A stretch of DNA of 31,107 nt from a virus (lineage: Duplodnaviria > Heunggongvirae > Uroviricota > Caudoviricetes): the IMG/VR virus record IMGVR_UViG_2713896798_000014; one strand, written 5' to 3'. Shown here one piece after another: positions 8,052 to 26,192 of the stretch (within the stretch, counting starts at the first letter, position 1; each line of letters starts with the position of its first letter). The translations under genes were made by a program, and so were the position numbers. The notes under the pieces were generated by a model. That model had not been told where the DNA came from. It did not search any database and saw only the letters and a program-made list of their open reading frames with translations.

Positions 8052-8312
8052 ATGCAATCACCATTACGGAATGTGCGTAAGGCGCACGGATTTACTTTGC
8101 AGCATGTTGCTGCGGGCGTTCAGGTCAATCCAGCGACGCTGAGTCGTATTGAAAGACTGGAACAAATTCCATCTATCGAGCTTGCAGAACGTCTGGCCAA
8201 TTTTTTTAAGGGAGAAATCAGCGAAATGCAGATTCTCTATCCTGCACGCTTTCAATCTAGTCAAAACCGGAATGAGTTAAAACCACAGGAACAGGAGGTA
8301 AGCCGTGGGTAA
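8052..8312 (+). CDS. cro: Cro-like HTH regulator
   Basis: 86 aa, divergent from cI; HTH segment GFTLQHVAAGVQVNPATLSRIER; GGAGG upstream. Confidence 0.7.
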   Translation: MQSPLRNVRKAHGFTLQHVAAGVQVNPATLSRIERLEQIPSIELAERLANFFKGEISEMQILYPARFQSSQNRNELKPQEQEVSRG

Positions 8313-8856
8313 GCATCACTGGAAAGTGGAAAAACAGCCTGAGTGGTACGTGAAAGCTGTCAGAAAAACTATCGCGGCGTTGCCGGGGGGTTACGCTGAA
8401 GCTGCTGAGTGGCTGGATGTAACAGAGAACGCTTTATTCAACCGCCTTCGTGCCGATGGCGATCAGTTTTTTCCGTTGGGATGGGCAATGGTTTTACAGC
8501 GTGCGGCTGGTACTCACCACATTGCGGATGCTGTCGCACAGTCTGCTGGTGGGGTGTTTGTATCACTTCCAGAAATTGAGGAAGTAGAGAACGCCGATAT
8601 AAACCAGCGCCTGCTGGAAGTCATCGAACAGATCGGGAGTTACTCAAAGCAGATTCGTTCGGCAATCGAAGATGGGGTAGTGGAGCCACACGAGCAGACA
8701 GCAATTAATGATGAGTTGTATCTGTCAATTTCGAAGCTCCAGGAGCATGCAGCACTGGTCTACAAAATCTTCTGCGCTCCAGAAAAGAGTAACGCCCGCG
8801 AGTGTGCAGCTCCGGGCGTCGTGGCGTTTTGTGTCTGTGGAGAAACTAACGCATGA
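8305..8856 (+). CDS. CII-like phage regulatory protein (family uncertain)
   Basis: GTG start with AGGAGG 6 nt upstream; position after cro; motif ...NRLRADGDQFFPLGWAMVLQRAAGTHHIADAVAQSAGGVFVSLP resembles enterobacterial CII-like regulators as recalled. Confidence 0.45.
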   Translation: MGKHHWKVEKQPEWYVKAVRKTIAALPGGYAEAAEWLDVTENALFNRLRADGDQFFPLGWAMVLQRAAGTHHIADAVAQSAGGVFVSLPEIEEVENADINQRLLEVIEQIGSYSKQIRSAIEDGVVEPHEQTAINDELYLSISKLQEHAALVYKIFCAPEKSNARECAAPGVVAFCVCGETNA

Positions 8857-9455
8857 ACAGTTTAACGGCAAATAACCGTTTGTCGCAACAGCTGGTGGTC
8901 AGTGTCGCTGCACACCTGTTGTTACGGCATGAATGCAGATTACCAAATCACCTGGCTGTAAGTAACCACAGAGAACTTTACCTGACTGTGGGGGGCGAGT
9001 TGTGCAGGAACTTAACCGCTGGTTTCGTGACGGAAGAGGACTTTATGTTCATGTTATTCGTTGGGAGCCAGAAACACAGCGCGTTATCTATCTTCGCAAA
9101 GACTACCCGCATGAGTGCTTTAGTCCTTTGTGGAAATTCAGGCGTGATTTTGTTGAGTGTGAAGGACCACCAGCATATTGACTCTGCAATTCCGGGACGT
9201 TACACTGTTCAGGCACCTTATAAAGCGGGTGCCGGGATTGGCGTCCTGAAATTGTCAACGGCGATGTATGACGCGCCAGCGTCTTTTTTATCGTCCGCAT
9301 TTGCTCACATCCAGATTATGGTGGGCTGGGCGGGGGCACCGAAAGGTGCGCCGGTCTCCGTTGACGCCGGTTACGCCAACCCCGTCCAGTTCACCACCAG
9401 TGAAATTGGCGTTTCCGGTGGTGGAAGTTTTTCACTGTCAACGGAGGCTGCCATC
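8853..9455 (+). other. ambiguous coding segment (two competing frames, G6 tract at junction)
   Basis: Frame of 8853 stays open into the Rha gene but reads as low-complexity; a protein-like 59-codon ORF lies in the -1 frame (9002-9181, ...NRWFRDGRGLYVHVIRWEPETQRVIYLRKDYPHECF...); G6 run at 8990-8995 where the frames meet. Confidence 0.3.
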
Positions 9456-10013
9456 ATGGCTACGATCCAAGCCCTCACTCAACCTGAAATCACCATTGAC
9501 AACGGCCAGGCCGTTACCACTTCTTTGGCTGTTGCCAACTTCTTCTCCAAGCGTCACGACGATGTGCTGAAAAAGATCCGCACTCTGGATTGTTCCCCTG
9601 AGTTTTGTGCCCGCAATTTTGCGGAGACATCGATTTCGGTAAATCAACCGAACGGTGGTACACGCAAGCTCCCTTGCTATCAAATCACACGAGACGGTTT
9701 TGCGTTTCTTGCTATGGGTTTCACGGGTAAACGTGCTGCCCGGTTCAAAGAGGCATACATCAATGCCTTTAACCAGATGGAAAAACTGCTTTCAAAGCCA
9801 TCCACGCTGAGCGATGCCGCAGATAACGCCAGCGTGCTTTACTCCCACCTGTCGGTAATCCACAAGGTCTGGCTGCAGCAGCTTTATCCTATGTTGGCAA
9901 AAGCTGAATCTCCGCTGGCTGTTAGCTTATATGATTATATTAATGATGCTTCGGCGCTGGCCTGCCTCATAAATTTGTCGCTGAACCCTTCAGAGGTAAG
10001 GGGGCGCAAATGA
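9456..10013 (+). CDS. Rha-family phage regulatory protein
   Basis: N-terminus MATIQALTQPEITIDNGQAVTTSLAVANFFSKRHDDVLKKIRTL matches Rha-domain pattern; GGAGG 7 nt upstream of ATG 9456; track reports this as the C-terminus of a 386-aa ORF. Confidence 0.65.
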   Translation: MATIQALTQPEITIDNGQAVTTSLAVANFFSKRHDDVLKKIRTLDCSPEFCARNFAETSISVNQPNGGTRKLPCYQITRDGFAFLAMGFTGKRAARFKEAYINAFNQMEKLLSKPSTLSDAADNASVLYSHLSVIHKVWLQQLYPMLAKAESPLAVSLYDYINDASALACLINLSLNPSEVRGRK

Positions 10014-10234
10014 TCCGGAATATTTTCAAACGGTTTACCAATCAGACTTTCCGTTGTCCTCGTCCGGGTCAGTGGTACACCACACCTGCAGGGCATGTTC
10101 TACGTGTTAGCCTGGTTGACCGTGAATGTCAGAAGGTGATTTGTGAACCGCTTGGCCGTAATTACCGCGTCAGTATGCCGCTTATAGCCTTTCGCTCCGG
10201 AAAAAACATGAAGCATCTCGGAGGTGCAGCATGA
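10010..10234 (+). CDS. hypothetical small protein
   Basis: 74-aa ORF coupled at both ends (ATGA overlaps at 10010 and 10231); no family recognised. Confidence 0.4.
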   Translation: MIRNIFKRFTNQTFRCPRPGQWYTTPAGHVLRVSLVDRECQKVICEPLGRNYRVSMPLIAFRSGKNMKHLGGAA

Positions 10235-11049
10235 GTATGGAGCTGATGGTTAAAGCGATGAAAATTCGAGTGGGTAATCCATTGCGAAAACTGGTTCTGA
10301 TCAAGCTGGCTGATAATGCCAGCGATCAGGGTGAGTGCTGGCCCAGCTACCAGCATATTGCTGACCAGTGCGAGATTAGCAAACGTTCTGTGATGAATCA
10401 TATTGCGGCTCTTTGTGATTCCGGACTGGTAAAAAAAGTCACCCGGAAAGGTGAAAAAGGTAACTCAAGTAATATCTATCTCCTTCATCTTGATGGTGCA
10501 GGAGATTCACTAGGGGGTAGTGCAAATAATTCACTATCTGGTGCAGCAAATTCACCAGGTAGTGCAGGAGTTGCACCAGGGGGTGGTGCAGGAGATTCAC
10601 CCAGAACCAGTCACTCTTTTGAACCAGTCAAAGAACCAGTCAATGAACCAATAGCTGTTGGTGCATCTGCTGATGAGTCTGTGCGAGTTCGTTCAAACCG
10701 ACCGGAATACTCTCCGGAGTTTGAGCTGGCATGGCTGGCATACCCCAAACGTGCTGGTGGCAATTCAAAATCTGCAGCCTTCAAAGCCTGGAAAGCCCGT
10801 TTGAATGAGGGGGTAAAACCCGAAACCATGCTGGAAGGTGTGAAACGCTACGCGGGCTGGGTATCTGCGATGGGTAACAGCGGCACACAATTTGTGAAAC
10901 AGGCTGTCACGTTCTTTGGCCCGGATCGTCATTTCGAAGAGTCCTGGGAAGTTCCTGCGGTATCTGCAGCCAGACGCGAGGACCCGTACTTCAAAGCCAG
11001 TTACGACAACGTGGACTACAGCCAGATCCCGGCAGGATTCAGGGGGTGA
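10231..11049 (+). CDS. replication-initiator-like protein (O-like, N-terminal HTH) containing iterons
   Basis: GGAGG 6 nt upstream; N-terminal winged-helix-like segment; Gly/Ser/Ala-rich linker encoded by ~22-bp direct repeats, analogous to lambda O/ori. Confidence 0.55.
   Translation: MSMELMVKAMKIRVGNPLRKLVLIKLADNASDQGECWPSYQHIADQCEISKRSVMNHIAALCDSGLVKKVTRKGEKGNSSNIYLLHLDGAGDSLGGSANNSLSGAANSPGSAGVAPGGGAGDSPRTSHSFEPVKEPVNEPIAVGASADESVRVRSNRPEYSPEFELAWLAYPKRAGGNSKSAAFKAWKARLNEGVKPETMLEGVKRYAGWVSAMGNSGTQFVKQAVTFFGPDRHFEESWEVPAVSAARREDPYFKASYDNVDYSQIPAGFRG
10495..10650. repeat. iteron-like direct repeats, candidate phage replication origin
   Basis: Five ~21-24-bp units each with GTGCA...TTCAC (GTGCA at 10497, 10520, 10541, 10562, 10586), then three copies of GAACCAGTCA (10604, 10621, 10633). 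Confidence 0.55.
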
Positions 11050-11051
11050 TC

Positions 11052-11144
11052 ATGAGTCTGTTAAATGACGTTCAGAAATTCATTGAAGCCCATCCGGGCT
11101 GTACTTCCGGAGACATTGCGGATGCTTTTTACGTGGGGGCTTAA
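11052..11144 (+). CDS. possible small ORF (30 aa)
   Basis: GGGGG 5 nt upstream; coupled to flanking genes (stop TAATG overlaps the methylase start). Confidence 0.3.
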   Translation: MSLLNDVQKFIEAHPGCTSGDIADAFYVGA

Positions 11145-11797
11145 TGAGTAATAAATATTGCCAGGCGCTGGTAGAACTGCGGAACAAACCAGCCCATGAA
11201 CTGAAGGAAGTGGGCGATCAGTGGCGCACGCCGGACAACATTTTCTGGGGAATTAACACCTTGTTTGGTCCGTTTGTTCTGGATCTGTTCACTGACGGTG
11301 ATAACGCCAAATGTGCCGCGTATTACACGGCGGAAGACAACGCGCTGGCGCATGACTGGTCAGAACGTCTTGCGGAGCTTAAAGGTGCTGCCTTTGGCAA
11401 TCCCCCGTACAGCCGCGCCAGTCAGCATGAGGGGCAATACATCACCGGCATGCGTTACATCATGAAGCATGCCAGTGCCATGCGTGATAAAGGCGGGCGC
11501 TATGTTTTCCTGATCAAAGCTGCCACCAGCGAAGTGTGGTGGCCGGAAGATGCAGATCATATTGCTTTTATTCGCGGGCGTATTGGTTTTGAACTGCCTG
11601 CCTGGTTTATCCCGAAAGACGAAAAGCAGGTGCCAACAGGTGCTTTCTTCGCTGGTGCTATTGCTGTTTTCGACAAGACCTGGAAGGGACCGGCAATCAG
11701 CTACATCGGGCGCGATGAACTTGAGGCATGTGGTGAGGCATTTCTGGCGCAGGTTCGCCAGCAGGCGGAAAAACTGGTCAGGGAGATGGTGGCATGA
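11144..11797 (+). CDS. phage N6-adenine DNA methyltransferase (Dam-like)
   Basis: Catalytic motif FGNPPYS; 217 aa typical of phage Dam family. Confidence 0.75.
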   Translation: MSNKYCQALVELRNKPAHELKEVGDQWRTPDNIFWGINTLFGPFVLDLFTDGDNAKCAAYYTAEDNALAHDWSERLAELKGAAFGNPPYSRASQHEGQYITGMRYIMKHASAMRDKGGRYVFLIKAATSEVWWPEDADHIAFIRGRIGFELPAWFIPKDEKQVPTGAFFAGAIAVFDKTWKGPAISYIGRDELEACGEAFLAQVRQQAEKLVREMVA

Positions 11798-12183
11798 AGC
11801 TAATACTGCCTTTTCCGCCCAGCGTGAACACGTACTGGCGACACCCCAACAAAGGGGCATTTGCTGGTAAGAGCCTGATAAGCGAGGCGGGGCGAAAATT
11901 TCAGAGCGCGGCGTGTGCCGCCATCATTGAGCAGTTACGTCGTCTGCCGAAACCAACGTCGGCACCTGCTTCAGTGGAGATCGTGTTGTTTCCTCCGGAT
12001 AACAGGATCCGCGATCTGGACAACTATAACAAGGCGCTGTTTGACGCCCTGACCCACGCGGGTGTGTGGGAAGACGACAGTCAGGTGAAAAGAATGCTGG
12101 TGGAGTGGGGACCGGTTATCCCGAAAGGGAAGGTCGAGATCACTATCAGTAAGTACGAGAAAACGGCGGGTGCAGCCGCCTGA
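11794..12183 (+). CDS. rusA: RusA Holliday-junction resolvase
   Basis: 129 aa; N-terminal MKLILPFPPSVNTYW and acidic catalytic region DNRIRDLDNYNKALFDAL typical of RusA. Confidence 0.8.
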   Translation: MKLILPFPPSVNTYWRHPNKGAFAGKSLISEAGRKFQSAACAAIIEQLRRLPKPTSAPASVEIVLFPPDNRIRDLDNYNKALFDALTHAGVWEDDSQVKRMLVEWGPVIPKGKVEITISKYEKTAGAAA

Positions 12184-12202
12184 TCAAGAGGAGAAACGAA
12201 GT

Positions 12203-13012
12203 ATGAATAATCTGATGGTCATTGATGGTATTGAAGTTCGTCGTGATGTTTATGGGCGTTACAGCCTGAACGATCTACATCGCGCAGCAGTAGCATCTGG
12301 TGCAAATGCCAGAACCAAGGAGCCAGGAAAGTTTCTTTCCAGCCAACAAACTGTTGAGCTTGTTCATGAATTGACCAACACCCAGAATTTGGGTGTTGAC
12401 CCGGTGAGTGTGATTCATGGGGGAAATGAACGGGGAACGTATGTCTGCAAGGAACTGGTGTATGCCTATGCAATGTGGATCAGCCCGTCATTCCATCTGA
12501 AGGTGATCCGTACTTTCGACATGGTAACCAGCGCACCGGAAAAATTATCCGGACAGGCTGCTGACAAGATGCAGGCTGGTGTGATTCTGCTGGACTTTAT
12601 GCGCCGGGAATTAAACCTGTCTAACTCTTCAGTGCTTGGTGCCTGTCAGAAACTCCAGGAGGCTGTTGGCTTACCGAATCTGGCACCGCGCTATGCCATT
12701 GATGCTCCTGCTGACGCGCCTGATGGCTCAAGCCGCCCCACGCTGTCACTGAGTGCACTGCTGAAGCAGTATGGTATCCGCCTGACAGCTAATCAGGCAT
12801 ATCACCAGATGGCGAAGCTGGGGATCGTTGAACAACGCGAACGATACAGTCGTACCGCGATTAACAACATCAAAAAATTCTGGTCGCTGACCGCGAAAGG
12901 CTGCATGTTCGGCAAGAACATCACCAGTCCTGCAAATCCGCGCGAGACGCAGCCGCATTTCTTCGAATCCCGATTCCCTGAGCTGTTAAAGCTGCTCGAT
13001 ACCGTTCATTGA
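12203..13012 (+). CDS. KilA-N domain protein
   Basis: N-terminus MNNLMVIDGIEVRRDVYGRYSLNDLHRAA fits KilA-N pattern; AAGAGGAG upstream of ATG 12203 (track start GTG 12170). Confidence 0.6.
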   Translation: MNNLMVIDGIEVRRDVYGRYSLNDLHRAAVASGANARTKEPGKFLSSQQTVELVHELTNTQNLGVDPVSVIHGGNERGTYVCKELVYAYAMWISPSFHLKVIRTFDMVTSAPEKLSGQAADKMQAGVILLDFMRRELNLSNSSVLGACQKLQEAVGLPNLAPRYAIDAPADAPDGSSRPTLSLSALLKQYGIRLTANQAYHQMAKLGIVEQRERYSRTAINNIKKFWSLTAKGCMFGKNITSPANPRETQPHFFESRFPELLKLLDTVH

Positions 13013-13013
13013 G

Positions 13014-14009
13014 GTGACCGTGAGAGCACTACTGACCCCTGAAATTGCCCCGCGTATGGGGATCGTATTGTTCAGACCAGGTTCAGAGCTGATGCCCCTG
13101 TTTATGCAGGGGCGTGTCCTGTTGGAGCCTGAGCCGGAACGTTATTCATCTTTCGCCAGTGGTGCCGTACCGGCGGCATCACAACCGCTGGCGGATGATC
13201 CTGCCGTTCGGGCCGTGTTCCGCAATGAGGCAGTGATCCGTCGTGCTGGTGGCGTGGAATGTCTTGAAAGCTGGTTACTTCGTGAAAAAGGCTGCCAGTG
13301 GCCTCATTCCGACTGGCACAGCGAGAACATGACAACAATGCGGCACGCGCCGGGCGCAATCCGTCTGTGCTGGCACTGCGATAACCAGCTGCGCGATCAG
13401 TTCACGGAACGACTGGAATCAATGGCAACGGATAACTGTGCCCGCTGGGTGTTGTCTGTTGTGCGTCGGGATCTCGGTTTTGATGATAGTCACGTTGTGA
13501 CAATGCCGGAACTGTGCTGGTGGCTGATTCGTAATGACCTGGCGGATGTCTTACCGGAAAGTGCAGCCCGTAAGGCACTGAGATTACCAAAGCCTGTTGT
13601 GCCGTCTGTCACCCGGGAAAGTGACCTTGTGCCTTCGGTTCCTGCCACCAGCATCATCCAGGATAAGGCAAAAAAGGTGCTGGCGCTGAAAGTGGATCCG
13701 GAGTCGCCGGAGTCTTTTATGTTACGCCCAAAACGTCGCCGCTGGGTTAATGAAAAGTACACGCGCTGGGTTAAGACGCAGCCGTGCGCATGTTGTGGAA
13801 AGCCTGCTGATGATCCCCACCACCTGATAGGTCACGGTCAGGGTGGAATGGCTACAAAAGCGCATGACCTCTTTGTGTTGCCTTTGTGCAGAAAGCATCA
13901 CGACGAGCTGCATGCGGATACCGTGGCATTTGAAGAGAAGTATGGCTCCCAGCTGGAGCTGATATTTCGTTTTATCGATCGTGCGCTGGCAATAGGCGTG
14001 CTGGCCTGA
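13014..14009 (+). CDS. DUF968-family phage protein (HNH-like Cys/His C-terminal motif)
   Basis: C-terminal CACCGKPADDPHHL...CRKHHDELH cluster; position in the nin-like region upstream of Q. Confidence 0.6.
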   Translation: MTVRALLTPEIAPRMGIVLFRPGSELMPLFMQGRVLLEPEPERYSSFASGAVPAASQPLADDPAVRAVFRNEAVIRRAGGVECLESWLLREKGCQWPHSDWHSENMTTMRHAPGAIRLCWHCDNQLRDQFTERLESMATDNCARWVLSVVRRDLGFDDSHVVTMPELCWWLIRNDLADVLPESAARKALRLPKPVVPSVTRESDLVPSVPATSIIQDKAKKVLALKVDPESPESFMLRPKRRRWVNEKYTRWVKTQPCACCGKPADDPHHLIGHGQGGMATKAHDLFVLPLCRKHHDELHADTVAFEEKYGSQLELIFRFIDRALAIGVLA

Positions 14010-14026
14010 TTTTGTGGAGAAAGTTG

Positions 14027-14398
14027 ATGCGTGATATTCAAATGGTTCTTGAACGTTGGGGGGCATGGGTGGCAAATAATCACGAGGATGTGGAATGGTC
14101 ATCTGTTGCTGCAGGTTTTAAGGGATTAATTCCTTCGAAAGTAAAATCCCGCCCGCAATGTAGCGATGACGATGGCCTGATCATTAGCTCTGCGATGACA
14201 GTTCTTAAGAAAAAGGAACCGTATCAATACGAATTACTGGAAATGTATTATGTGTATGGGGTTACATTACGGGCGTTGGGGGTAAAACTGGGGATATCAC
14301 TTAATCAGGTTGTTATCAGACTGCAGAAAGCTGAAGGGTTTATTGACGGTTGTCTGGCAATGTTGGGGGTATCTTTAGAAATTGATTGTTACATATAG
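14027..14398 (+). CDS. Q: late-gene antiterminator Q-like protein
   Basis: Position immediately upstream of the late region; GGAGA 6 nt upstream of ATG 14027; family assignment from recollection of Q-like sequences. Confidence 0.6.
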   Translation: MRDIQMVLERWGAWVANNHEDVEWSSVAAGFKGLIPSKVKSRPQCSDDDGLIISSAMTVLKKKEPYQYELLEMYYVYGVTLRALGVKLGISLNQVVIRLQKAEGFIDGCLAMLGVSLEIDCYI

Positions 14399-14431
14399 TA
14401 ATAAATTCAATCAAAGTAAATAATCATATTT

Positions 14432-14470
14432 TATAATAACCTCCTGATGATACCTGTTCATTGGGAGGTT
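14432..14470 (+). promoter_or_regulatory. consensus -10 (TATAAT) plus hairpin sequestering the downstream Shine-Dalgarno
   Basis: TATAAT at 14432-14437, 34 nt after the Q stop; perfect 7-bp inverted repeat AACCTCC (14438-14444)/GGAGGTT (14464-14470) whose 3' arm overlaps the GGGAGG ribosome-binding site. Confidence 0.4.
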
Positions 14471-14473
14471 ATT

Positions 14474-15091
14474 ATGGATAAAAATGTAGAGCATGTATTA
14501 GTTGATGCAATTGAAAATAAGCAATCTTTAACAGTCGTTTACTTAGGAGGGAGCCAGCCCGGAACATTAAGGAATATTTCTCCGATTAGTATAAATGGGG
14601 ATAAATTGCGGGCAAGATGCCATAGTTCTGGAGCAGTAAAGGTTTTCAATCTTGGGAAAATACAGTTACCCAGTGACTCCTGCGCGGTATCTATGCACTA
14701 TGGAGATTTAGAAGTTAAAGCTTATGAGACGATGCAGAGCGTAAATGACAACTTTCATGCCCTTTATCCTGAAGGACGATGGGGTGTTGATTTTAATGAG
14801 CATCGCTTTGCTTTATTTGATTTTTTTAAAAACGGGAAACGAAAAAAAACGGCATTTATGGCAATTGAGTTCAGGGAAAGAGATGAAGAGAAAATAATAA
14901 CAGGTGTAACAATTGATATTGGTATATCTGGAACAGTGATTTCTGAGAAGTCCCGAATCCCAAAAAGACGACCATGGGTAGTGGTTGGTCCCGAACACGG
15001 AGAATACAGTACTTATTCAACTTTGGACAAGGCTGCTACAGCGTTTTTTGAGAGGCTTTCGTTGATAGCATCCGGCCTGGAAGATAATTGA
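14474..15091 (+). CDS. hypothetical protein with N-terminal WYL-like domain (cargo gene)
   Basis: 205 aa; N-terminal LTVVYLGGSQPGTLRNISPISINGDKLRARCHSSGAVKVFNLGKI fits the WYL pattern as I recall it; visibly AT-rich; start at 14474 (GGGAGG + 5 nt) preferred over track ATG 14447. Confidence 0.55.
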   Translation: MDKNVEHVLVDAIENKQSLTVVYLGGSQPGTLRNISPISINGDKLRARCHSSGAVKVFNLGKIQLPSDSCAVSMHYGDLEVKAYETMQSVNDNFHALYPEGRWGVDFNEHRFALFDFFKNGKRKKTAFMAIEFRERDEEKIITGVTIDIGISGTVISEKSRIPKRRPWVVVGPEHGEYSTYSTLDKAATAFFERLSLIASGLEDN

Positions 15092-15224
15092 TTTTATGTT
15101 TGGTATTCAGAGTTCTCCGTGCTTAAGAAAGTCAAGATTCTAAAAATACTGAATGAGCTACTTGTGTTATAACAAAAATGCTATTAGTGTGTTAAGAGTG
15201 GTTACTTCGCCACACAACTTAAAC

Positions 15225-15245
15225 CCGCCGCTGAGCGGTTTTTTT
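15225..15245 (+). terminator. candidate weak rho-independent terminator
   Basis: Short GC stem (CCGC/GCGG) followed by T7 run. Confidence 0.35.
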
Positions 15246-15369
15246 GTACCTGTAAACCTGGTGCAGTACAGTAAACACGCTGGTGGTCGTGAATACTGGC
15301 TTTTTATCTTGCTGGCTTTTTAGACAAGAGTTATTGGTATGTCACGTTAACCGGAAAGGGTAAAAAGAC

Positions 15370-15567
15370 ATGCTGAAACAGCAGGATATGACAGAAACCG
15401 CCAGAGTTGTGTTTGATGAATTAAGCGTTACCGAACCGGCGACAGTCGGGGAGATTGCGCAGAATACTTACCTTTCACGCGAACGCTGCCAGTTAATACT
15501 GACCCAGCTTGTTATGGCGGGTCTGGCAGACTATCAGTGCGGTTGTTACAGACGCCTTCAGTCCTGA
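15370..15567 (+). CDS. small putative DNA-binding protein (winged-helix-like)
   Basis: 65 aa; segment ATVGEIAQNTYLSRERCQLILTQLVMAGL looks HTH-like; followed directly by a strong terminator. Confidence 0.45.
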   Translation: MLKQQDMTETARVVFDELSVTEPATVGEIAQNTYLSRERCQLILTQLVMAGLADYQCGCYRRLQS

Positions 15568-15580
15568 AGGCTTTTTATTT
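15554..15580 (+). terminator. rho-independent terminator
   Basis: 7-bp stem GCCTTCA/TGAAGGC with 4-nt loop, then TTTTTATTT; overlaps the stop codon. Confidence 0.7.
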
Positions 15581-15635
15581 GTGGTGAATGGGCGGCTGGT
15601 GGGGGGGCGACACCTGTCAGTCCTTTGCTTATGTG

Positions 15636-15666
15636 TTGATGATAATTTACCTTTTGGGGCTATAAT
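15636..15666 (+). promoter_or_regulatory. candidate promoter for the AraC-family gene
   Basis: Perfect TATAAT at 15661-15666, 36 nt before ATG 15702; weak -35 TTGATG with a long spacer; a G7 run lies just upstream (15601-15607). Confidence 0.35.
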
Positions 15667-15701
15667 TGAGCTAACCAATTGCTAATGAAAGTAAAATTAT
15701 A

Positions 15702-16415
15702 ATGGCTGTTGTCTGTTCAGTTATCATGGTTTGCTCCCCAATTAATATTTTTCTTGAAAAGGATACGTTGTCACTTAAGCCAGGCTCAGTTGTTCTGGCC
15801 ACCAAATGCATCAGGGAGCTTTTCCTTATGCATTATGGCAAAGTTAAAATTGTCGATATAAGCGAATCCGTCGTAAGTCAATATCTGGAAAGTCAGCATA
15901 AGCTGACGAGGACTCGTCTGACTGACATTCCGCTTTACCTGTTGCTGGAACCCAACAATCCTGCGTTGGCTGCGGCTTTAATTACCAGCCAGGGATTTTC
16001 CGGAGAGGCCACGGATATGTTTCTTATGATGGCCTGCCTGTCTCTGTTTGAAACAGATGAACGGATGTCATTGTTTTTAAGTGGATGTTTATCCAGCATA
16101 AGTGCCAAAGTCAGGGCGATAATTCAGACAGATATATCAGCAAGCTGGACGCTTGGTGCGATTGCTCTACAGTTGCATATGAGTGAGAGTTTGTTAAAGA
16201 CAAAACTGAAAAATGAAGGGGGCATGTTCAGTCGCTTGTTGCTGGAAGAGCGGATGCGTGTTGCTGTAAATATGTTATGTTCCCGGCATGGATATGGACA
16301 GGCTATAGCAGAAAAATGCGGTTATTCAAGCAGGTCCTACTTTATTTCTGTATTTCACCGCTATTATGGCTTCCCGCCAGACAGATATGTATCCAGGCAA
16401 GGGCTTGATTATTGA
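15702..16415 (+). CDS. AraC/XylS-family transcriptional regulator
   Basis: C-terminal double HTH (WTLGAIALQLHMSESLLKTKLK...GYSSRSYFISVFHRYYGFPPDRY); AT-rich; start uncertain (15702 or 15828). Confidence 0.75.
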   Translation: MAVVCSVIMVCSPINIFLEKDTLSLKPGSVVLATKCIRELFLMHYGKVKIVDISESVVSQYLESQHKLTRTRLTDIPLYLLLEPNNPALAAALITSQGFSGEATDMFLMMACLSLFETDERMSLFLSGCLSSISAKVRAIIQTDISASWTLGAIALQLHMSESLLKTKLKNEGGMFSRLLLEERMRVAVNMLCSRHGYGQAIAEKCGYSSRSYFISVFHRYYGFPPDRYVSRQGLDY

Positions 16416-16443
16416 TTTTCATCTGATTATTATTTTTTGGCTC

Positions 16444-16519
16444 GGCCCTTTAGCTCAGTGGTGAGAGCGAGCGACTCATAATCGCCAGGTCGCTGGTTCA
16501 AATCCAGCAAGGGCCACCA
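16444..16519 (+). tRNA. tRNA with CAU anticodon (Ile2/Met-type, ileZ-like)
   Basis: 76 nt; acceptor stem GGCCCTT/AAGGGCC, anticodon loop CTCATAA, T-loop GGTTCAAATCC, 3' CCA. Confidence 0.8.
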
Positions 16520-16528
16520 TATTACATA

Positions 16529-16605
16529 CCGCTATTAGCTCATCGGGACAGAGCGCCAGCCTTCGAAGCTGGCTGCGCGGGGTTCAAGTCCCCGATGGCG
16601 GTCCA
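16529..16605 (+). tRNA. tRNA-Arg (anticodon UCG)
   Basis: 77 nt; anticodon stem CCAGC/GCTGG with loop CTTCGAA; T-loop GGTTCAAGTCC; 3' CCA. Confidence 0.8.
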
Positions 16606-16618
16606 TTATCAGCATCAT

Positions 16619-16695
16619 GCGTTGTTAGCTCAGTCGGACAGAGCAATTGCCTTCTAAGCAATCGGTCAGTGGTTAGACTCCACTACAACGCGCCA
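16619..16695 (+). tRNA. tRNA-Arg (anticodon UCU)
   Basis: 77 nt; anticodon stem ATTGC/GCAAT with loop CTTCTAA; 3' CCA. Confidence 0.8.
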
Positions 16696-16708
16696 CACTT
16701 ATTTTCCA

Positions 16709-16734
16709 GGCTCGCTTCGGCGGGCCTTTTTTGT
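16709..16734 (+). terminator. rho-independent terminator after the tRNA cluster
   Basis: GGCTCGC-TTCG-GCGGGCC hairpin followed by TTTTTTGT. Confidence 0.65.
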
Positions 16735-16864
16735 ATCTGCGCCACGCCCGGCGCATATCAACCACAGAGCCTTTCGGGGGTGAGCTTACGGAGTGGTCAG
16801 TGTGACTTTCTCTGTGGGCAGATCGCTCCCGGGCGTTGGCTCACCCACCCAAAGGAACGTCACG

Positions 16865-17296
16865 ATGTTTGGAATCTTCAAAAAGAAAACCCGCAGAGCG
16901 GCAGCGGAAATTAAAAAGTTTGAGAAACGCGATCTGGCACAGGCGGTGATTAACGCTGCATACCTGGTGGCCTATGCAGATGGTGAATGCGAGGCATCCG
17001 AGAAAGCGAAGATCGAACAGGTCTTACGTAATCAGCCTGCGTTGTCTGCGTTTACCTCGGAAATTAATGCGATTAGCGCAACCATTATCGGTCAGCTGGA
17101 TACCAATTTTAAAATTGGTCGTCGTGCCGCGTTACGCGAGATTGAGGATGTGAAACACGATACGCGTGAAGCGGAAGATGTGCTGGATGTGGCGGTGGCC
17201 ATTGCGGAGGCAGACGGCGAAATTGAGCCGGAAGAGCGCAAGGTGCTGGAAGAGATTGCCGGTGTTCTGGGTCTTCGTCTGGAGAATCACCTGTGA
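16865..17296 (+). CDS. TerB-like domain protein
   Basis: Two repeats of the ...A.ADGE.E..E pattern (AAYLVAYADGECEASEKAKIEQVL; VAVAIAEADGEIEPEERKVLEEI); start at ATG 16865 with AGGAA upstream. Confidence 0.65.
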   Translation: MFGIFKKKTRRAAAEIKKFEKRDLAQAVINAAYLVAYADGECEASEKAKIEQVLRNQPALSAFTSEINAISATIIGQLDTNFKIGRRAALREIEDVKHDTREAEDVLDVAVAIAEADGEIEPEERKVLEEIAGVLGLRLENHL

Positions 17297-17460
17297 CGGT
17301 AAAACTGCGCCTGGCTGTGGCTGCACTCCTGCTGTTTCTGGTGGTGATGGTGGATCTCACCAGCAGAATCATGTCGGTGCTGGCGGATGGGGTGCTGGTC
17401 TGCGGCATTGTGGTATTGCTGTGGCCGGTGATAAAAAGAAACAGCCTGCATAATGCTTGA
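17293..17460 (+). CDS. small predicted membrane protein (55 aa, two hydrophobic segments)
   Basis: GTG start overlapping the TerB-like stop (GTGA); hand translation VTVKLRLAVAALLLFLVVMVDL...VLVCGIVVLLWPVIKRN; below track cutoff. Confidence 0.4.
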   Translation: MTVKLRLAVAALLLFLVVMVDLTSRIMSVLADGVLVCGIVVLLWPVIKRNSLHNA

Positions 17461-17772
17461 TTTTTTTATTTGCTGTTTATTAAAAACACTTCTGCATGGT
17501 GAATCCCCCTGTGCGGAGGGGCGATCAGCAACCAGGTATATGGGATAATCGCGGATTCAGGTGCTGATACTGAATTCACCGGGAGGCACCCGGCACCATG
17601 CTTTGCCACAAAAGTGTTGTTTCTGTTTTTCTCAAACTATCATCATTATCCCTTTATTTCCGGCTGCGCATGGCGTGGCTTTTTTTACGACCAGCCACTG
17701 GCAGATGGCCATCCTGTAATTTGATTCCGGTTCCGGCTTTTTAACTCTGTTCCTGTACACGGGAGAAATTCG

Positions 17773-19623
17773 ATGTCGATTAAACATTATGATGTTGTCA
17801 GGGCGGCGTCGCCGTCAGACCTTGCGGAAAAGCTGACACATAAACTGAAAGAGGGCTGGCAGCCGTTTGGTAGTCCGGTGGCCATAACCCCTTATACCCT
17901 GATGCAGGCGATTGCAGCAGAAGGTGATGTGGTGGTCAGTGGTGCAACTGAGCCGGAGTGGTACTACGTCATCGTACTGGCCGGGCAGTCCAATGCCATG
18001 GCTTACGGTGAAGGGCTTCCGCTGCCGGATTCATACGATGCTCCGGATCCGCGCATTAAACAGCTGGCGCGCCGCAGTACAGTGACGCCGGGTGGGGCTG
18101 CCTGCAGATATAACGATATTATTCCGGCCGACCATTGCCTGCATGATGTGCAGGATATGAGTACGCTGAATCATCCGAAGGCAGACCTGAGCAAAGGGCA
18201 GTACGGCTGTGTCGGCCAGGGGTTACATATTGCCAAAAAACTGCTCCCGTATATCCCGAATAACGCGGGGATCCTGCTGGTACCATGCTGTCGTGGTGGT
18301 TCGGCATTCACCCAGGGCGCGGAGGGGACATTCAGTGCGGACACGGGGGCCAGCCAGGATTCGGCGCGCTGGGGTGTGGGTAAACCGTTATATCAGGACC
18401 TGATTGCGCGCACCAAAGCTGCATTACAGAAGAACCCGAAAAATGTGTTGCTGGCGGTGTGCTGGATGCAGGGAGAGTTTGACATGAGCGCCGCCACCCA
18501 CGCACAGCAACCTGCGCTGTTTACAGCCATGCTGAAGCAGTTTCGTGCTGACCTCACTGTGTTTAACGCGCAGTGTCATGGTGGCAGTGCTGCAGATGTG
18601 CCGTGGATTTGTGGTGACACGACGTATTACTGGAAAAATACATACGCTACCCAGTACGACACCGTGTACGGCGGGTATAAAAACAGGGAGAGTGAGGGCG
18701 TTTATTTTGTGCCCTTCATGACAGACGGTAACGGCGTTAATACCGCCACTAACGCGCCGGCAGAAGATCCGGATATTCCGGCATCAGGATATTACGGTGC
18801 GGCATCGAGAACGAATGGAAACCAGGTATCATCAAACCGCCCGACACATTTCAGTTCATGGGCGCGCAGGAGCATTATTCCGGATCGTCTGGCAACCGCT
18901 ATTCTGAACGCAGCCGGGCGCACCTCAGCCTTCATCAGTGGTAAGGCACCGGAAATCAAACCCTCGCCCGGCGGCAACACGCCATCGGGTCCGTCTGCAG
19001 ATACGTCCGTTCGCACAATCTCCCTGCTGCCGGCAGCCGGAGAGGCTGCTGCGCAGGGCTGGAGCATTAAGGATGGCGGAATTCAGTTGTCAGATGGTGT
19101 ATTTAAGATCACCAAGCAGAGCAATAAAACCTGGTCCCTGACGCATCCGGTGGATGACGCAATTACCCTGCTGACACAGGGTGGCAGACTGAACTGTAAG
19201 TTCCGCCTGTCAGGCGCACTGACCAACAATCAGTTCGGGCTGGGGATTTATCTGTATACGGATGCTCCCGTTCCTGATGGTGTGGCGATGACGGGTACCG
19301 GTAATCCGTTCCTGATGTCGTACTTCACTCAGACCACTGACGGCAGAGTGAATCTGATGCATCACAGGAAAGCCGGAAACACGAAGCTGGGGGAGTTCGG
19401 CGATTACGGTAACGACTGGCAGACGCTGGAGCTGGTGTTCACCGCCGGCAGTGCCACGGTTACTCCGAAACTGAATGGAGTGGCTGGCCCGGCATTCCAG
19501 GTTATAAAAGACAGTCTGAAAGTGGGGCTGAATGCGCTGACGTTAACTGACATCACAAAAGGTGCCACGTACGGCGTTGAGATAGAAAGTCTGGTGCTGG
19601 AGATAAATACACTGGCAGCATAA
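17773..19623 (+). CDS. nanS: NanS-p-like sialate O-acetylesterase (DUF1737 N-terminus + SGNH/SASA-like domain)
   Basis: N-terminus MSIKHYDVVRAASPSDLAEKLTHKLKEGWQPFGSPV and esterase block VIVLAGQSNAMAYGE; GGGAGA 6 nt upstream; occupies the position of Stx-phage yjhS/nanS-p. Confidence 0.75.
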   Translation: MSIKHYDVVRAASPSDLAEKLTHKLKEGWQPFGSPVAITPYTLMQAIAAEGDVVVSGATEPEWYYVIVLAGQSNAMAYGEGLPLPDSYDAPDPRIKQLARRSTVTPGGAACRYNDIIPADHCLHDVQDMSTLNHPKADLSKGQYGCVGQGLHIAKKLLPYIPNNAGILLVPCCRGGSAFTQGAEGTFSADTGASQDSARWGVGKPLYQDLIARTKAALQKNPKNVLLAVCWMQGEFDMSAATHAQQPALFTAMLKQFRADLTVFNAQCHGGSAADVPWICGDTTYYWKNTYATQYDTVYGGYKNRESEGVYFVPFMTDGNGVNTATNAPAEDPDIPASGYYGAASRTNGNQVSSNRPTHFSSWARRSIIPDRLATAILNAAGRTSAFISGKAPEIKPSPGGNTPSGPSADTSVRTISLLPAAGEAAAQGWSIKDGGIQLSDGVFKITKQSNKTWSLTHPVDDAITLLTQGGRLNCKFRLSGALTNNQFGLGIYLYTDAPVPDGVAMTGTGNPFLMSYFTQTTDGRVNLMHHRKAGNTKLGEFGDYGNDWQTLELVFTAGSATVTPKLNGVAGPAFQVIKDSLKVGLNALTLTDITKGATYGVEIESLVLEINTLAA

Positions 19624-19632
19624 TAAAAAAAC

Positions 19633-19667
19633 AGCCAGTACTGACTTTCGTCGGAGAAGTACTGGCT
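19633..19667 (-). terminator. hairpin oriented as a minus-strand terminator
   Basis: Perfect 10-bp stem AGCCAGTACT/AGTACTGGCT; T-run follows only on the minus strand. Confidence 0.4.
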
Positions 19668-19841
19668 AAGAAGGATAGTTGTGTTTCACATCATTTTCAG
19701 ACTGGACGGTACATTTTCTGACAGATAGTGACGGATGTTGTCAAGATATTGTGTCATTTATAACCTGAATCAGGGGAGGCCGGAATGTTATCTGGCATTT
19801 TTAGCAGAGCCTGAATGCCATAATCACGGCTCCCGGCGTTG

Positions 19842-19872
19842 GCCGCCAGTGGGTGACACTGGCGGCTTTTTT
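19842..19872 (+). terminator. strong rho-independent terminator immediately upstream of the holin gene (tR'-like)
   Basis: Perfect 10-bp stem GCCGCCAGTG/CACTGGCGGC, 5-nt loop, then TTTTTTGTTTTT. Confidence 0.75.
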
Positions 19873-19922
19873 GTTTTTCTTTACTTTCATTTTCTGTCGG
19901 CGGTGACGGAGACATACATCAG

Positions 19923-20129
19923 ATGGAAAAAATCACAACAGGTGTGTCATACACCACGTCAGCGGTGGGGACGGGATACTGGTTACTGCAGCTGCTGGAC
20001 AAAGTCTCTCCGTCCCAGTGGGTGGCGATAGGTGTGCTGGGGAGTCTGCTGTTTGGCCTGTTGACGTATCTTACTAACCTGTATTTCAAAATCAGAGAGG
20101 ACCGTCGTAAGGCGGCGCGGGGAGAGTAA
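19923..20129 (+). CDS. S: class II holin (phage 21 S-type pinholin)
   Basis: 68 aa; ...[47 protein letters not shown] closely resembles S21 as recalled. Confidence 0.8.
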
Positions 20130-20133
20130 AGCG

Positions 20134-20478
20134 ATGAAGAAAAAATACGAACTGGTTGTTAAAGGGATAAATAATTACCCGGATAAGATTACTGTTAGTG
20201 TGGCACTGGAAATTGGTGGGTATCCGTCACTGTTGTTGCCAGATGTGGCGATTAGTCTTGACCGTACTGAAGGAGCCACGCTGGAGTTTTACGAAGCTGA
20301 GGCGAAAAAGCAGGCGAAGCAGTTTTTCATGGATGTTGCTGCCGGGTTATGTGAAGGGGATGGTCCGTTGCCGGAAAAGCGGCCCATCATTTTAGAGGCG
20401 CAGGATGTGTTGATAACCTACAGAGGAAAACTACCGGGAATAATTACTGGTTCTCTGAAGACTCCACCGCTGGCCTGA
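20134..20478 (+). CDS. hypothetical protein inserted between holin and endolysin
   Basis: 114 aa; ribosome-binding site GGGGAGAG inside the holin 3' end; no family recognised. Confidence 0.6.
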   Translation: MKKKYELVVKGINNYPDKITVSVALEIGGYPSLLLPDVAISLDRTEGATLEFYEAEAKKQAKQFFMDVAAGLCEGDGPLPEKRPIILEAQDVLITYRGKLPGIITGSLKTPPLA

Positions 20479-20528
20479 AGACTTAACATATCCAGGGATT
20501 TGAAATCGATAAATCCTGATAAATATCC

Positions 20529-21062
20529 ATGAACGCAAAAATCAGATACGGCCTGTCGGCTGCCGTTCTGGCGCTGATTGGTGCAGGGGCGTCTGCGCCT
20601 GAAATCCTCGACCAGTTTCTGGATGAAAAGGAAGGTAACCACACCACGGCATACCGTGATGGTGCGGGTATCTGGACCATCTGCCGAGGTGCCATCCTGG
20701 TGGATGGTAAACCTGTCGTTCCGGGCATGAAGTTGTCGAAGGAAAAATGCGACCGGGTTAACGCCATTGAGCGTGATAAGGCGCTGGCATGGGTGGAGAA
20801 AAACATCAAAGTGCCGCTGACCGAACCCCAGAAAGCGGGGATCGCGTCATTCTGTCCGTACAACATTGGTCCCGGTAAGTGTTTCCCGTCGACGTTTTAC
20901 AGACGAATTAATGCAGGTGATCGAAAAGGTGCCTGCGAAGCGATTCGCTGGTGGATTAAGGACGGTGGCAGAGACTGCCGTATTCGTTCAAACAACTGTT
21001 ACGGTCAGGTATCCCGTCGTGACCAGGAGAGCGCGCTGGCGTGCTGGGGAATCGACAGATAA
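20529..21062 (+). CDS. R: SAR-type endolysin (lysozyme)
   Basis: N-terminal signal-anchor-release-like hydrophobic segment GLSAAVLALIGAGASA followed by lysozyme-like core (EGNHTTAYRDGAGIWTICRG). Confidence 0.8.
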   Translation: MNAKIRYGLSAAVLALIGAGASAPEILDQFLDEKEGNHTTAYRDGAGIWTICRGAILVDGKPVVPGMKLSKEKCDRVNAIERDKALAWVEKNIKVPLTEPQKAGIASFCPYNIGPGKCFPSTFYRRINAGDRKGACEAIRWWIKDGGRDCRIRSNNCYGQVSRRDQESALACWGIDR

Positions 21063-21332
21063 GAAGAATATTTTGCTGAAAAATGAGGTTTGCTTACATG
21101 GACGGATAACACGAAATCCTGCAAATTTGCAAAATGTAAGTGAATAAAGTCAAAACAGTTGTTTAACACTCAGGCACCGTAATGATGCCTTTGTCATTTC
21201 TGCGCATCTCACGCGCATCTCACAACACAGAACCTTTCAGGATGACCCTTGAGGATACCGGTTTGGCTGTCGGTGCCTTTCTGTGGACTGGATTCCTGTG
21301 AGACAAGGTTCATCACTAAAAGGAAATAACCG

Positions 21333-21902
21333 ATGAATATGATGGCCGTGCCGTTTCACGGCAACTCTCTTTATGTAGTTAACCATAATGGCGAACCATA
21401 CGTTCCCATGAAACCTGTCGTTGCGGGGATGGGGCTGGCCTGGCAATCACAGTTGGCTAAGTTAAGACAGCGTTTTGCGTCAACTATAACGGAAATCGTT
21501 ATGGTTGCTGAGGATGGGAAACAACGCAATATGGTGTCCATGCCACTTCGAAAACTTGCCGGCTGGCTACAAACCATTAATCCCAACAAAGTAAAACCCG
21601 AAATCCGCGATAAGGTCATCCGGTATCAGGAAGAGTGCGACGATGTTCTTTACGAGTACTGGACGAAGGGTTTTGTCGTTAATCCCCGTAAAATGAGCGT
21701 GATGGAAGAACTCAACCAGGCTTGTGCTGACATGAAACGGGATAAAAATATTGCCAGTGTGTTTGCTACCGGGCTGAATGAGTGGAAACAGGTTAAAGCC
21801 GCGCATGTATCAAAAATCCGTACGCTGGTAAATGAAGCGAATATGCTGATTGATTTTGTCCTGGCTGATACAGGCAAAGGGAAAATAACAAAGGCGGATT
21901 GA
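21333..21902 (+). CDS. antirepressor-like phage protein (family tentative)
   Basis: N-terminus VPFHGNSLYVVNHNGEPYVPMKPVVAGMGLAW resembles antirepressor N-terminal domains; located between endolysin and Rz as in some Stx phages. Confidence 0.45.
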   Translation: MNMMAVPFHGNSLYVVNHNGEPYVPMKPVVAGMGLAWQSQLAKLRQRFASTITEIVMVAEDGKQRNMVSMPLRKLAGWLQTINPNKVKPEIRDKVIRYQEECDDVLYEYWTKGFVVNPRKMSVMEELNQACADMKRDKNIASVFATGLNEWKQVKAAHVSKIRTLVNEANMLIDFVLADTGKGKITKAD

Positions 21903-22048
21903 TGGGGTGGCTAATGATATCAGATAAACTCATAACGCTGGTGAAGAGCCTCTGTGTACTTGTCGGCATTTCATTTTTAGTCATGCTGGTTGCCATTTTC
22001 TTTTCCACCGCCTGGCGAGTCCTGACGTTATCGGGACTGGTGGGGTGA
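21902..22048 (+). CDS. possible small membrane protein (48 aa)
   Basis: ATG overlaps upstream stop; hydrophobic core [18 protein letters not shown]; below track cutoff. Confidence 0.3.
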
Positions 22049-22055
22049 AAGAGAG

Positions 22056-22523
22056 ATGAACCGTGTTCTGTGTGTGGTGATTATTGTCCTGGCGGTTGGC
22101 TGTGGTGCGCTGTGGCTGGCAACAAACCATTACCGTGACAACGCGCTCACCTACAAAGCGCAGCGCGATAAAAAAGCCAGAGAGCTGGAACAGGCGAATG
22201 CAACCATTACTGATATGCAGCAGCGCCAGCGTGATGTTGCTGCACTTGATGCCAGATACTCGAGGGAATTAGCCGATGCGAGAGCTGAAAATGAAACTCT
22301 GCGCGCTGATGTTGCCGCTGGTCGTAAGCGCCTGCGCATCAACGCCAACTGTCCCGGTACCGTGCGTGAAGCCACCGGCACCGCCCGCGTGGATAATGCA
22401 ACCGGCCCCCAACTGGCAGACACCGTTACACGGGATTATTTCACCCTCAGAGAGCGGCTGATGACGATGCAGAAGCAACTGGAAGGGGCACAGGACTATA
22501 TCCGCACTCAGTGCCTGAACTAA
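22056..22523 (+). CDS. Rz: Rz i-spanin
   Basis: N-terminal transmembrane segment then coiled-coil-like Ala/Arg/Glu-rich periplasmic domain; Rz1 embedded in +1 frame. Confidence 0.8.
22276..22461 (+). CDS. Rz1: Rz1 o-spanin lipoprotein (embedded in Rz)
   Basis: Lipobox LVVSAC after a short signal peptide, proline-rich mature region; fully nested within Rz. Confidence 0.75.
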
Positions 22524-22715
22524 GTTTTGCTGATGCGCCGTATCGTCGCTGTATTCCCTCATTAACAGAGACCGCAGCCCGACAGGGAGACTCCTCTGCG
22601 CGAGTGTGCGGGGATAATCAAAAACGATACACACCGGGGTTTACCGCGTTAACGGAGCGCGGCGTTGTCCCCTCATAGTCGCCTGTCCGGTACGATGGTG
22701 GAAGAAACCGAACGT

Positions 22716-22916
22716 TCATTTCTCGTTATTTGTCATGCTGGCCGTACGCAGATGCGTTGCATCTGTTGCCAGCCTTCTCCTGCAGGCTTCAATAACCCAC
22801 GCTGAAAAGTTACTGGACCCTTTATGCTCAAGGGCGATGTTGATCTGTTCAATCATGTGATTGGGGAAACGGATATTGCGGGTTGTGGTTCTGCGGGTCC
22901 GGTTTTTCGATGACAT
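22716..22916 (-). CDS. small ribbon-helix-helix-like protein (DUF3950/YlcI-like)
   Basis: Start at ATG 22916 (AGGAA + 6 nt); MSSKNRTRRTTTRNIRFPNHMIEQINIALEHKGSSNFSAWVIEACRRRL. Confidence 0.5.
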   Translation of the reverse strand: MSSKNRTRRTTTRNIRFPNHMIEQINIALEHKGSSNFSAWVIEACRRRLATDATHLRTASMTNNEK

Positions 22917-22957
22917 ATTTATTTCCTTTACTGATTGCCATATGACGGGGATTTTAC

Positions 22958-23323
22958 ATGGCTGAGCTTCGTACACTCCAGAGCAGAATCAAAACTCTGA
23001 ACACCCGACGGGTGAATATTCTGAAGGGGGAACAGCGTCGTGTCAGTGGCAGTGCACGTGTTTCCCTCAAGCGTCATATCTGGCTGAGGGATGCCGGACA
23101 GTGCTGTCTCTGTGGTCGTGTGGTTGACCTCTGTGACAGTGAACTCGATCACCGAATTGCACTTCAGTTCGGTGGTGGTAATGAGGAGACGAATCTCTGG
23201 ACGCTCTGTACCGAATGCCATCGACAAAAGTCTGCTCGTGAAGCGGCGGGTGGTATGCCGGACCCGACGCTGCCGGAGGTGTCCGGAGGTCATGGCAGGG
23301 CAGACGATATCATCGGACTGTGA
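22958..23323 (+). CDS. HNH endonuclease
   Basis: C..C...H...C.C.H pattern (CCLCGRVVDLCDSELDHRIALQFGGGNEETNLWTLCTECHRQK). Confidence 0.8.
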   Translation: MAELRTLQSRIKTLNTRRVNILKGEQRRVSGSARVSLKRHIWLRDAGQCCLCGRVVDLCDSELDHRIALQFGGGNEETNLWTLCTECHRQKSAREAAGGMPDPTLPEVSGGHGRADDIIGL

Positions 23324-23331
23324 CCCGCCCC

Positions 23332-23383
23332 GGGGGGGGGATCATCCGGCGAAAAAAACGATCGCTCCGGACACCGCCCCCCC
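23332..23383. repeat. homopolymer tracts: G9 (23332-23340), A7 (23352-23358), C7 (23377-23383)
   Basis: Counted directly in the sequence, immediately after the HNH stop. Confidence 0.9.
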
Positions 23384-23569
23384 TCTCACGCAGAGAAAAA
23401 ATTCCCGTTTCAGGGCAGTTAACATGTTAACTGGCTGTCCGGGCATTTTTGCGGTTTTTATCTTTATTATTCAGTTTGTTGCGTGGGTAACCGGCTCATT
23501 TAAACCGTCTGGTCTGTTTCCTCCGGCTCTACAAAAATAATGTCCATCATTTTTAATGGACACTATCGT

Positions 23570-24564: not shown

Positions 24565-24583
24565 CCCGTTGTAAAGTGAGGAT

Positions 24584-26155: not shown

Positions 26156-26192
26156 ATATCAATACGGTTCTGACGAGTCGCTTACTTTTGTT

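Follow-up and report, generated by a model that had tools for sequence, protein, structure and literature searches.

A probable psrB allele in an exchangeable late-region cassette of a dusA-integrated lambdoid prophage of Escherichia coli

The window, that is the whole stretch of 31,107 nucleotides analysed here (IMG/VR record IMGVR_UViG_2713896798_000014), is an E. coli lambdoid prophage with dusA as its integration site. Positions 1-23486 were 99.9% identical to strain UTAK-6. After the lysis/HNH region the structural genes of the prophage have been replaced by an IS66-family element; UTAK-6 is intact there. Between the late antiterminator gene Q and a group of tRNA genes lie ORF205, a leader-like segment, an ORF for a 65-aa protein and a gene for an AraC-type regulator (Table 1). 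Inspection of the letters had suggested that type III effector genes are carried on the same element. One NleG-family ORF was indeed present, but no further effector-family gene could be verified.

Table 1. Positions of the features discussed, numbered from the first nucleotide of the window
Feature	Position	Strand	Evidence and remarks
Late antiterminator Q gene	14012-14398	+	Pfam Phage_antitermQ, E 5e-48; PHROG 79; left edge of the variable region
ORF205	14474-15091	+	Most AT-rich cargo gene; PHROG 8498; unrelated to the psr cassette
StxS-like segment	15173-15246	+	Alignment to Stx2a_1447; similar to the 3' end of the late-promoter (PR') leader of Stx2a phages
Chi site GCTGGTGG	15279-15286	+	5' of the 65-aa ORF, within a non-coding block that is conserved
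65-aa winged-helix protein ORF	15370-15567	+	PHROG 331; conserved, and first gene of the late region in lambdoid prophages, after Q and the tR'-like terminator
Intrinsic-terminator-like hairpin GCCTTCAGTCCTGAAGGC, then T5	15554-15571 (with T-run to 15576)	+	Overlaps the stop codon of the 65-aa ORF; kept in other alleles
Chi site GCTGGTGG (15595-15602) running into a G7 tract (15601-15607)	15595-15607	+	
Candidate sigma-70 promoter of the AraC gene	15639-15666	+	-35 ATGATA, 16-nt spacer, -10 TATAAT (15661-15666)
psrB-type AraC/XylS regulator gene, 237 aa	15702-16415	+	Pfam; identity to the Sp11 and Sp4 proteins; PHROG 1450, E 1.5e-98
Three tRNA genes: ileZ-type (CAU), argN (UCG), argO (UCU)	16444-16695	+	ARAGORN; Rfam tRNA
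Strong intrinsic-terminator-like site	16708-16737	+	3' of the tRNAs; first terminator downstream of the AraC gene
IS66-family element (tnpA, tnpB, transposase)	23540-26155		
NleG-family effector ORF	26193-26831		Pfam T3SS_NleG, E 6e-44; same dusA-integrated prophage as the AraC gene
257-aa ORF, AT-rich	26970-27743		After the IS66-family element
Rfam IS009 RNA match	27841-28039		214 bits
Tyrosine integrase	28508-29605	-	Followed by dusA and pspG

AraC/XylS regulators are characterised by a C-terminal DNA-binding domain of about 100 aa with two helix-turn-helix motifs, and the 237-aa protein is one of them. Two Pfam models scored above their gathering cut-offs: HTH_AraC, matching in two stretches (E 2.4e-13; 50.3 bits, cut-off 26.6), and HTH_18, covering residues 155-230 (E 5.8e-10; 39.8 bits, cut-off 33.6). 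These matches confirm the assignment to this family, first made from the letters alone. The homology search gave near-identical prophage regulators. ECs_2191 of prophage Sp11 of E. coli O157:H7 Sakai, which has the same sequence as WP_000301797.1 of Xuzhou21, was identical at 234 of 237 positions (98.7%), and ECs_1087 of Sakai Sp4 at 215. The Sp11 and Sp4 proteins share 215 of 237 residues with each other (90.7%).

ECs1087 on Sp4 has been named psrA (PMC13502914); the sources differ on its locus tag, which elsewhere is z1789 on OI-50 (PMC10877973, PMC8565820). PsrA has its closest homologue in PsrB (z2104, OI-57), at 90% identity (PMC8565820, PMC10877973). The 90.7% between the Sp11 and Sp4 proteins agrees with this published figure, and from that agreement together with the prophage position we infer that ECs_2191 is PsrB (Z2104). 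The AraC gene of the window is thus very probably a psrB allele, encoding an AraC/XylS activator of the YdeO/GadW/AppY/PatE branch and forming a late-region moron of the prophage. The regulator itself has already been published, and our observation adds little beyond the fact that this dusA prophage has a PsrB allele.

The gene is widespread. The window, Sp11 and Sp4 proteins (four sequences in all) share one 90%-identity cluster of 2285 members, and the exact 237-aa protein was found on at least 1000 contigs. Of 5426 complete E. coli genomes, 830 had a homologue of psr, and in 595 of these the nucleotide identity reached at least 99%. Genomes carrying psr had it at a median of two places each, and the O157 genomes listed had two each. 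The ORF is intact and dN/dS among psr alleles was 0.19-0.43, consistent with a functional gene under moderate purifying selection.

There is something to be gained for annotation. In RefSeq the gene product is no more than a "helix-turn-helix domain-containing protein". For both psr genes the Sakai annotation takes an internal ATG as the start, 42 codons too late, so that the products have 195 aa (ECs_1087, L002 18804-19391; ECs_2191, L010 1433-2020). The start giving 237 aa (position 15702) is favoured, because the NCBIfam model of YdeO gave a full-length, sub-threshold match to residues 1-229 and because the N-terminal motif M-x-x-x-CSVI is found in all relatives.

In comparison with PsrB of Sp11, the window allele has the same length and differs by A103V, H196Y and I202V, two of the three lying in the DNA-binding half. 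The gene order is also the same (small ORF, AraC gene, ileZ, argN/argO, TerB, DUF3927, nanS-p-like esterase, holin), with 94-97% DNA identity to Sp11 across positions 15272-22513, and both alleles are found in lambdoid prophages with NleG effector genes. The prophages themselves differ: that of the window is integrated at dusA and has a Q of the PF06530 type, whereas Sp11 has a DUF1133-type Q. The window furthermore has ORF205 in addition, three tRNAs instead of two, a G7 instead of a G8 tract, and no pch/PerC gene. Reviews describe psr loci as associated with effector loci and with Pch (PerC-like) regulators on the same prophage (PMC10877973, PMC8565820). A PerC/Pch gene was found neither in the window, where the prophage is truncated by the IS66 element, nor in this prophage as annotated in UTAK-6.

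PsrA of Sp4 (ECs_1087; 90.7% identity) is likewise placed between Q and ileZ-argN-argO. Most of its 22 substitutions are in the N-terminal half, and the small ORF upstream of it is frameshifted. Close identity to PsrA and PsrB, and a late-region position between Q and the ileZ/arg tRNAs of a lambdoid prophage, thus both apply to the window gene. PatE (OI-8, Sakai Sp1; taken, by its position, to be ECs_0287) is another prophage-borne AraC-like activator of acid resistance, sharing the M-x-x-x-CSVI motif. Its full-length identity is far lower (37%) and it is located at the end of a degraded prophage, outside the slot between Q and the tRNAs. The K-12 chromosomal regulators GadW (35%), YdeO (31%) and GadX (41% over the C-terminal half) and AppY of prophage DLP12 (29%) have the same architecture and belong to the same AraC subfamily. 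The NCBIfam equivalog cut-offs were missed by a wide margin (YdeO, 108.5 bits against 348; GadX, 87 bits against 500), so the window protein is not an orthologue of YdeO, GadX, GadW or AppY. A PADLOC search with the AraC protein, the small ORF, ORF205 and TerB gave no convincing match.

To delimit the cassette, eight psr loci were aligned: those of the window, Sp4, Sp11/Xuzhou21, phage phiSTEC1575-Stx2k and three other E. coli genomes. Their similarity starts at an intrinsic terminator (15227-15246), located where tR' would be expected; everything 5' of it is unrelated and tracks different Q families. The small ORF comes next in every one of these loci. Stx2a phages have it too, as do prophages of Salmonella and Klebsiella, and there it is followed by a PF01555 N6/N4 DNA methyltransferase gene in the place of the AraC gene. 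Homology between the AraC loci and the methyltransferase loci ends at about 15604-15640. The psr gene is therefore an exchangeable cassette, bordered on one side by the conserved ORF for the small winged-helix protein and on the other by the ileZ-argN-argO tRNAs.

The cargo 3' of the tRNAs varies as well: TerB in the window, stx2k in phiSTEC1575 and subAB in strain OkiPb01701. In phage phiSTEC1575-Stx2k (L011 4481-6804) psr lies directly upstream of the tRNAs and stx2k. In strain OkiPb01701 (L014 2501-5714) a psr-type AraC gene lies upstream of the subtilase cytotoxin (subAB) genes.

The G + C content of positions 14400-16430 was 41.6%, against 52.1% in the left flank (8300-14000) and 51.9% in the right flank (16430-23480), and was within the lowest 5% of sliding windows of 2031 nt. 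The sequence-only reading was thus correct in calling this tract AT-richer than the phage backbone, although parts of the window elsewhere are as AT-rich or more so (e.g. 26000-29700). The tract is a mosaic, however. The G + C content of ORF205, the Q gene, the AraC gene and the 65-aa ORF was 39.6%, 42.4%, 43.8% and 50.5%, respectively, and GC3 was 0.32 for ORF205 and a backbone-like 0.53 for the 65-aa ORF. The AT-rich cargo genes used the codons ATA, AGA and AGG more often (AraC 4.6%, NleG 7.0%, ORF205 7.8%) than backbone genes did (0.7-2.4%); with CGA included, the rare codons of ORF205 amounted to 7.8%. The description as AT-rich regulatory cargo therefore fits the AraC cassette, but not the 65-aa ORF, which belongs to the conserved lambdoid backbone and elsewhere stands before different genes. 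The AT-rich tract also takes in Q and the unrelated ORF205. Since a methyltransferase gene can replace the AraC gene after the same small ORF, and since the homology ends where it does, only the AraC cassette (approximately 15604-16415, 43.8% G + C, with its own -10 element) is swapped-in cargo.

A TATAAT belonging to the AraC gene had been pointed out, and it is present where it was placed, as the -10 element of a candidate promoter. It was the best promoter-like site in our scan, with 10 of 12 matches. Eight such sites were found in the region and 6.8 were expected from shuffled sequence, so a consensus match by itself says little about promoter activity. The candidate promoter lies within cassette-specific sequence and its -10 hexamer was unchanged in all eight psr alleles; the -35 region is variable, and is deleted in one of them (L014). 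A 16-nt inverted repeat (15639-15654 and 15688-15703) spans the promoter and the start codon. A hairpin formed by this repeat and sequestering the ribosome-binding site was considered and rejected, as the RNA folded no better than shuffled sequences (z = +0.39).

In a lysogen, psr would probably be transcribed from this predicted promoter. After induction it may be transcribed in addition by Q-antiterminated read-through of both the tR'-like terminator and the terminator of the small ORF. The psr transcript probably continues into the tRNA genes, which begin 29 nt past the AraC stop codon, as the stretch from that stop to position 16708 contains no predicted terminator. The first of these tRNAs (16444-16519) is Met (CAU) according to ARAGORN and tRNA-Ile (ileZ type) in RefSeq; presumably it is read as Ile following lysidine modification.

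PsrA and PsrB activate gadE, yhiF and hdeA, and by raising GadE and YhiF they indirectly repress type III secretion encoded by the LEE (PMC10877973, PMC8565820). PsrB binds the hdeA promoter (-132 to -45) and the gadE promoter, and its induction leads to better acid survival, including during passage through the mouse stomach; deletion of psrB by itself caused little change in secretion in O157 (PMC10877973, PMC8565820). The proposal that the prophage regulator might control virulence or stress genes of the host matches this published role of its near-identical relatives (PMC10877973, PMC8565820). By analogy, PsrB of the window would raise acid resistance via gadE and hdeA, and in LEE-positive hosts would also repress type III secretion indirectly.

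It is conceivable, though on the whole unlikely, that psr is intact yet effectively silent or redundant in the lysogen, through xenogeneic silencing of AT-rich DNA or through masking by a second psr copy, GadX, GadW or YdeO, and that it ordinarily has no measurable regulon. Such a situation would be in keeping with the small effect of the psrB deletion on secretion, effects having been seen with psrB in trans (PMC10877973, PMC8565820), with the low G + C content of the cassette (43.8%) and with the median of two places per psr genome. It is at odds with the higher acid survival upon induction of PsrB and its direct binding to hdeA and gadE (PMC10877973), and also with the moderate purifying selection and the -10 hexamer retained in eight alleles. 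This possibility overlaps in part with a psrB allele acting on host genes, and does not exclude it.

The 65-aa protein had also been picked out from the letters, as winged-helix-like and with a terminator of its own. The ORF and its hairpin with T5 were both found, and a winged-helix fold is supported by structure prediction. An AF2 model built from 20 homologues (mean pLDDT 87.7) has the topology H1-b-H2-H3-hairpin, with elements H4-17, H26-33, H37-49, E53-56 and E59-62. The best Foldseek matches of this model were winged-helix domains of IclR and MarR proteins (2g7u, 2ia2, 2pex; TM 0.78-0.81; rmsd 1.5-1.9 A for IclR), with E-values of just about 2e-3 because the domain is very short. The predicted structure thus superposes on solved winged helix-turn-helix domains. 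A search against PDB sequences gave no match at E <= 10. Pfam TrmB (PF01978) scored 17.8 bits, under its gathering cut-off of 25.6, so that "TrmB family transcriptional regulator", as RefSeq has it, is a loose label.

Homologues at least 77% identical occur across Escherichia, Salmonella, Klebsiella, Citrobacter and Buttiauxella. Comparison with Salmonella gave a pN of 0.07 and a pS of 0.63, the synonymous sites being near saturation; the ORF is under strong purifying selection. The two genes might form one regulatory module in which the small protein is a co-regulator or controller of psr, as they are neighbours in the same orientation, with 134 nt between them, in each of the eight psr loci and the small protein is predicted to have a DNA-binding fold. 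We regard this as improbable, since the small ORF occupies the same position without an AraC gene in the Stx2a phages and the Salmonella and Klebsiella prophages, and has a backbone-like G + C content and its own terminator. In Sakai Sp4 (ECs_1086, L002 18344-18583) a deletion of 1 nt alters the C-terminal third, giving a 79-aa product with an unrelated tail, next to psrA, a copy with a deletion phenotype; a partnership with Psr is thus unlikely to be obligatory. The 65-aa protein is separate backbone, not a PsrB-specific partner. Its ORF is bracketed by conserved non-coding blocks with Chi sites and always precedes an exchangeable cassette, that of the methyltransferase or that of Psr. It is conceivable, though doubtful, that the protein is an undescribed late-region regulator of lambdoid phages, Stx phages included, which like a controller protein would set expression of the cassette or of downstream cargo (stx) at induction.

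Upstream of the small ORF, the window resembles the late leader of Stx2a phages. In these phages the 3'-terminal part of the PR'-tR' transcript yields StxS, an RNA of 74 nt (PMC7547250). The StxS-like segment of the window ends in the tR'-like intrinsic terminator (stem 15227-15239, then T7), whose position is kept in the eight psr loci; the stems differ in sequence yet stay paired by compensating changes. Rfam matched no family in 14380-15720, even at E <= 1, so the StxS-like reading is one of DNA similarity. Folding of 15173-15248 alone was not significant (z = -1.2). The late promoter for this Q may lie at about 15164-15172, where there is a TGnTATAAC element, but in the most similar Stx2a phage Q is just 48% identical, and the sequence upstream is unrelated. 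ORF205, between Q and this segment, gave a weak WYL-like signal under the cut-off (Pfam WYL, E 0.0096), and its 205-aa start is preceded by a GGAGG ribosome-binding site. The full arrangement of 14400-16720 was found in 27 of the 5426 complete E. coli genomes, including NMEC strain S88 (ECS88_0554).

The place of psr in the late operon, just 3' of Q and the tR'-like terminator, and its membership of PHROG 1450, a well-populated phage family whose function is not annotated, could suggest that the AraC protein mainly controls phage genes or the decision between lysis and lysogeny, host effects being incidental; this is highly unlikely, because on the chromosome its nearest relatives are regulators of acid resistance (GadW, YdeO and GadX; 29-41% identity), the targets published for PsrA and PsrB belong to the host, and sister phages with an otherwise identical late region hold the unrelated methyltransferase in the slot, an exchangeability that an essential phage regulator would not have.

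Chi sites are frequent in the window: 14 were found, 11 of them on the + strand, and 0.94 were expected from shuffles. The sequence GGCGGCTGGTGGG, just 3' of the terminator of the small ORF, contains a Chi site and is conserved in all loci, those of Salmonella and Klebsiella included. The G tract that follows differs between alleles (G7 in the window, G8 in Sp11, G9 in one strain and GGGTGTTAG elsewhere), and homology to the methyltransferase phages stops shortly after it. A G7 run upstream of the AraC gene had been noted together with its TATAAT. The run exists, but it is no recognisable promoter element: it flanks a conserved Chi site on the 3' side and varies, and in the eight-allele alignment nothing was found that ties the tract to promoter function.

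The PsrB allele gives this prophage a known route into the GAD acid-resistance circuit and into control of type III secretion of the host. The cassette shares its late-operon hotspot with stx2, subAB or TerB just downstream, and the position of psr directly upstream of stx2k in one Stx2k phage implies that a toxin-converting phage can co-deliver a regulator of acid resistance and type III secretion. LEE-negative ExPEC/NMEC strains, S88 for example, have the same allele block, and in them only the acid-resistance arm could matter.

Rfam matches to small RNAs were seen at two other places in the window. STnc100 (17468-17645; 105 bits, gathering 47) lies between the TerB/DUF3927 genes and a gene for a SASA/DUF6645 esterase of 616 aa, and a strong terminator (17662-17680) is located 3' of it. 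Adjacent matches to isrK (62 bits) and C4 antisense RNA (81 bits) are present at 9213-9401, within the region of the Rha-family regulatory gene of the early operon.
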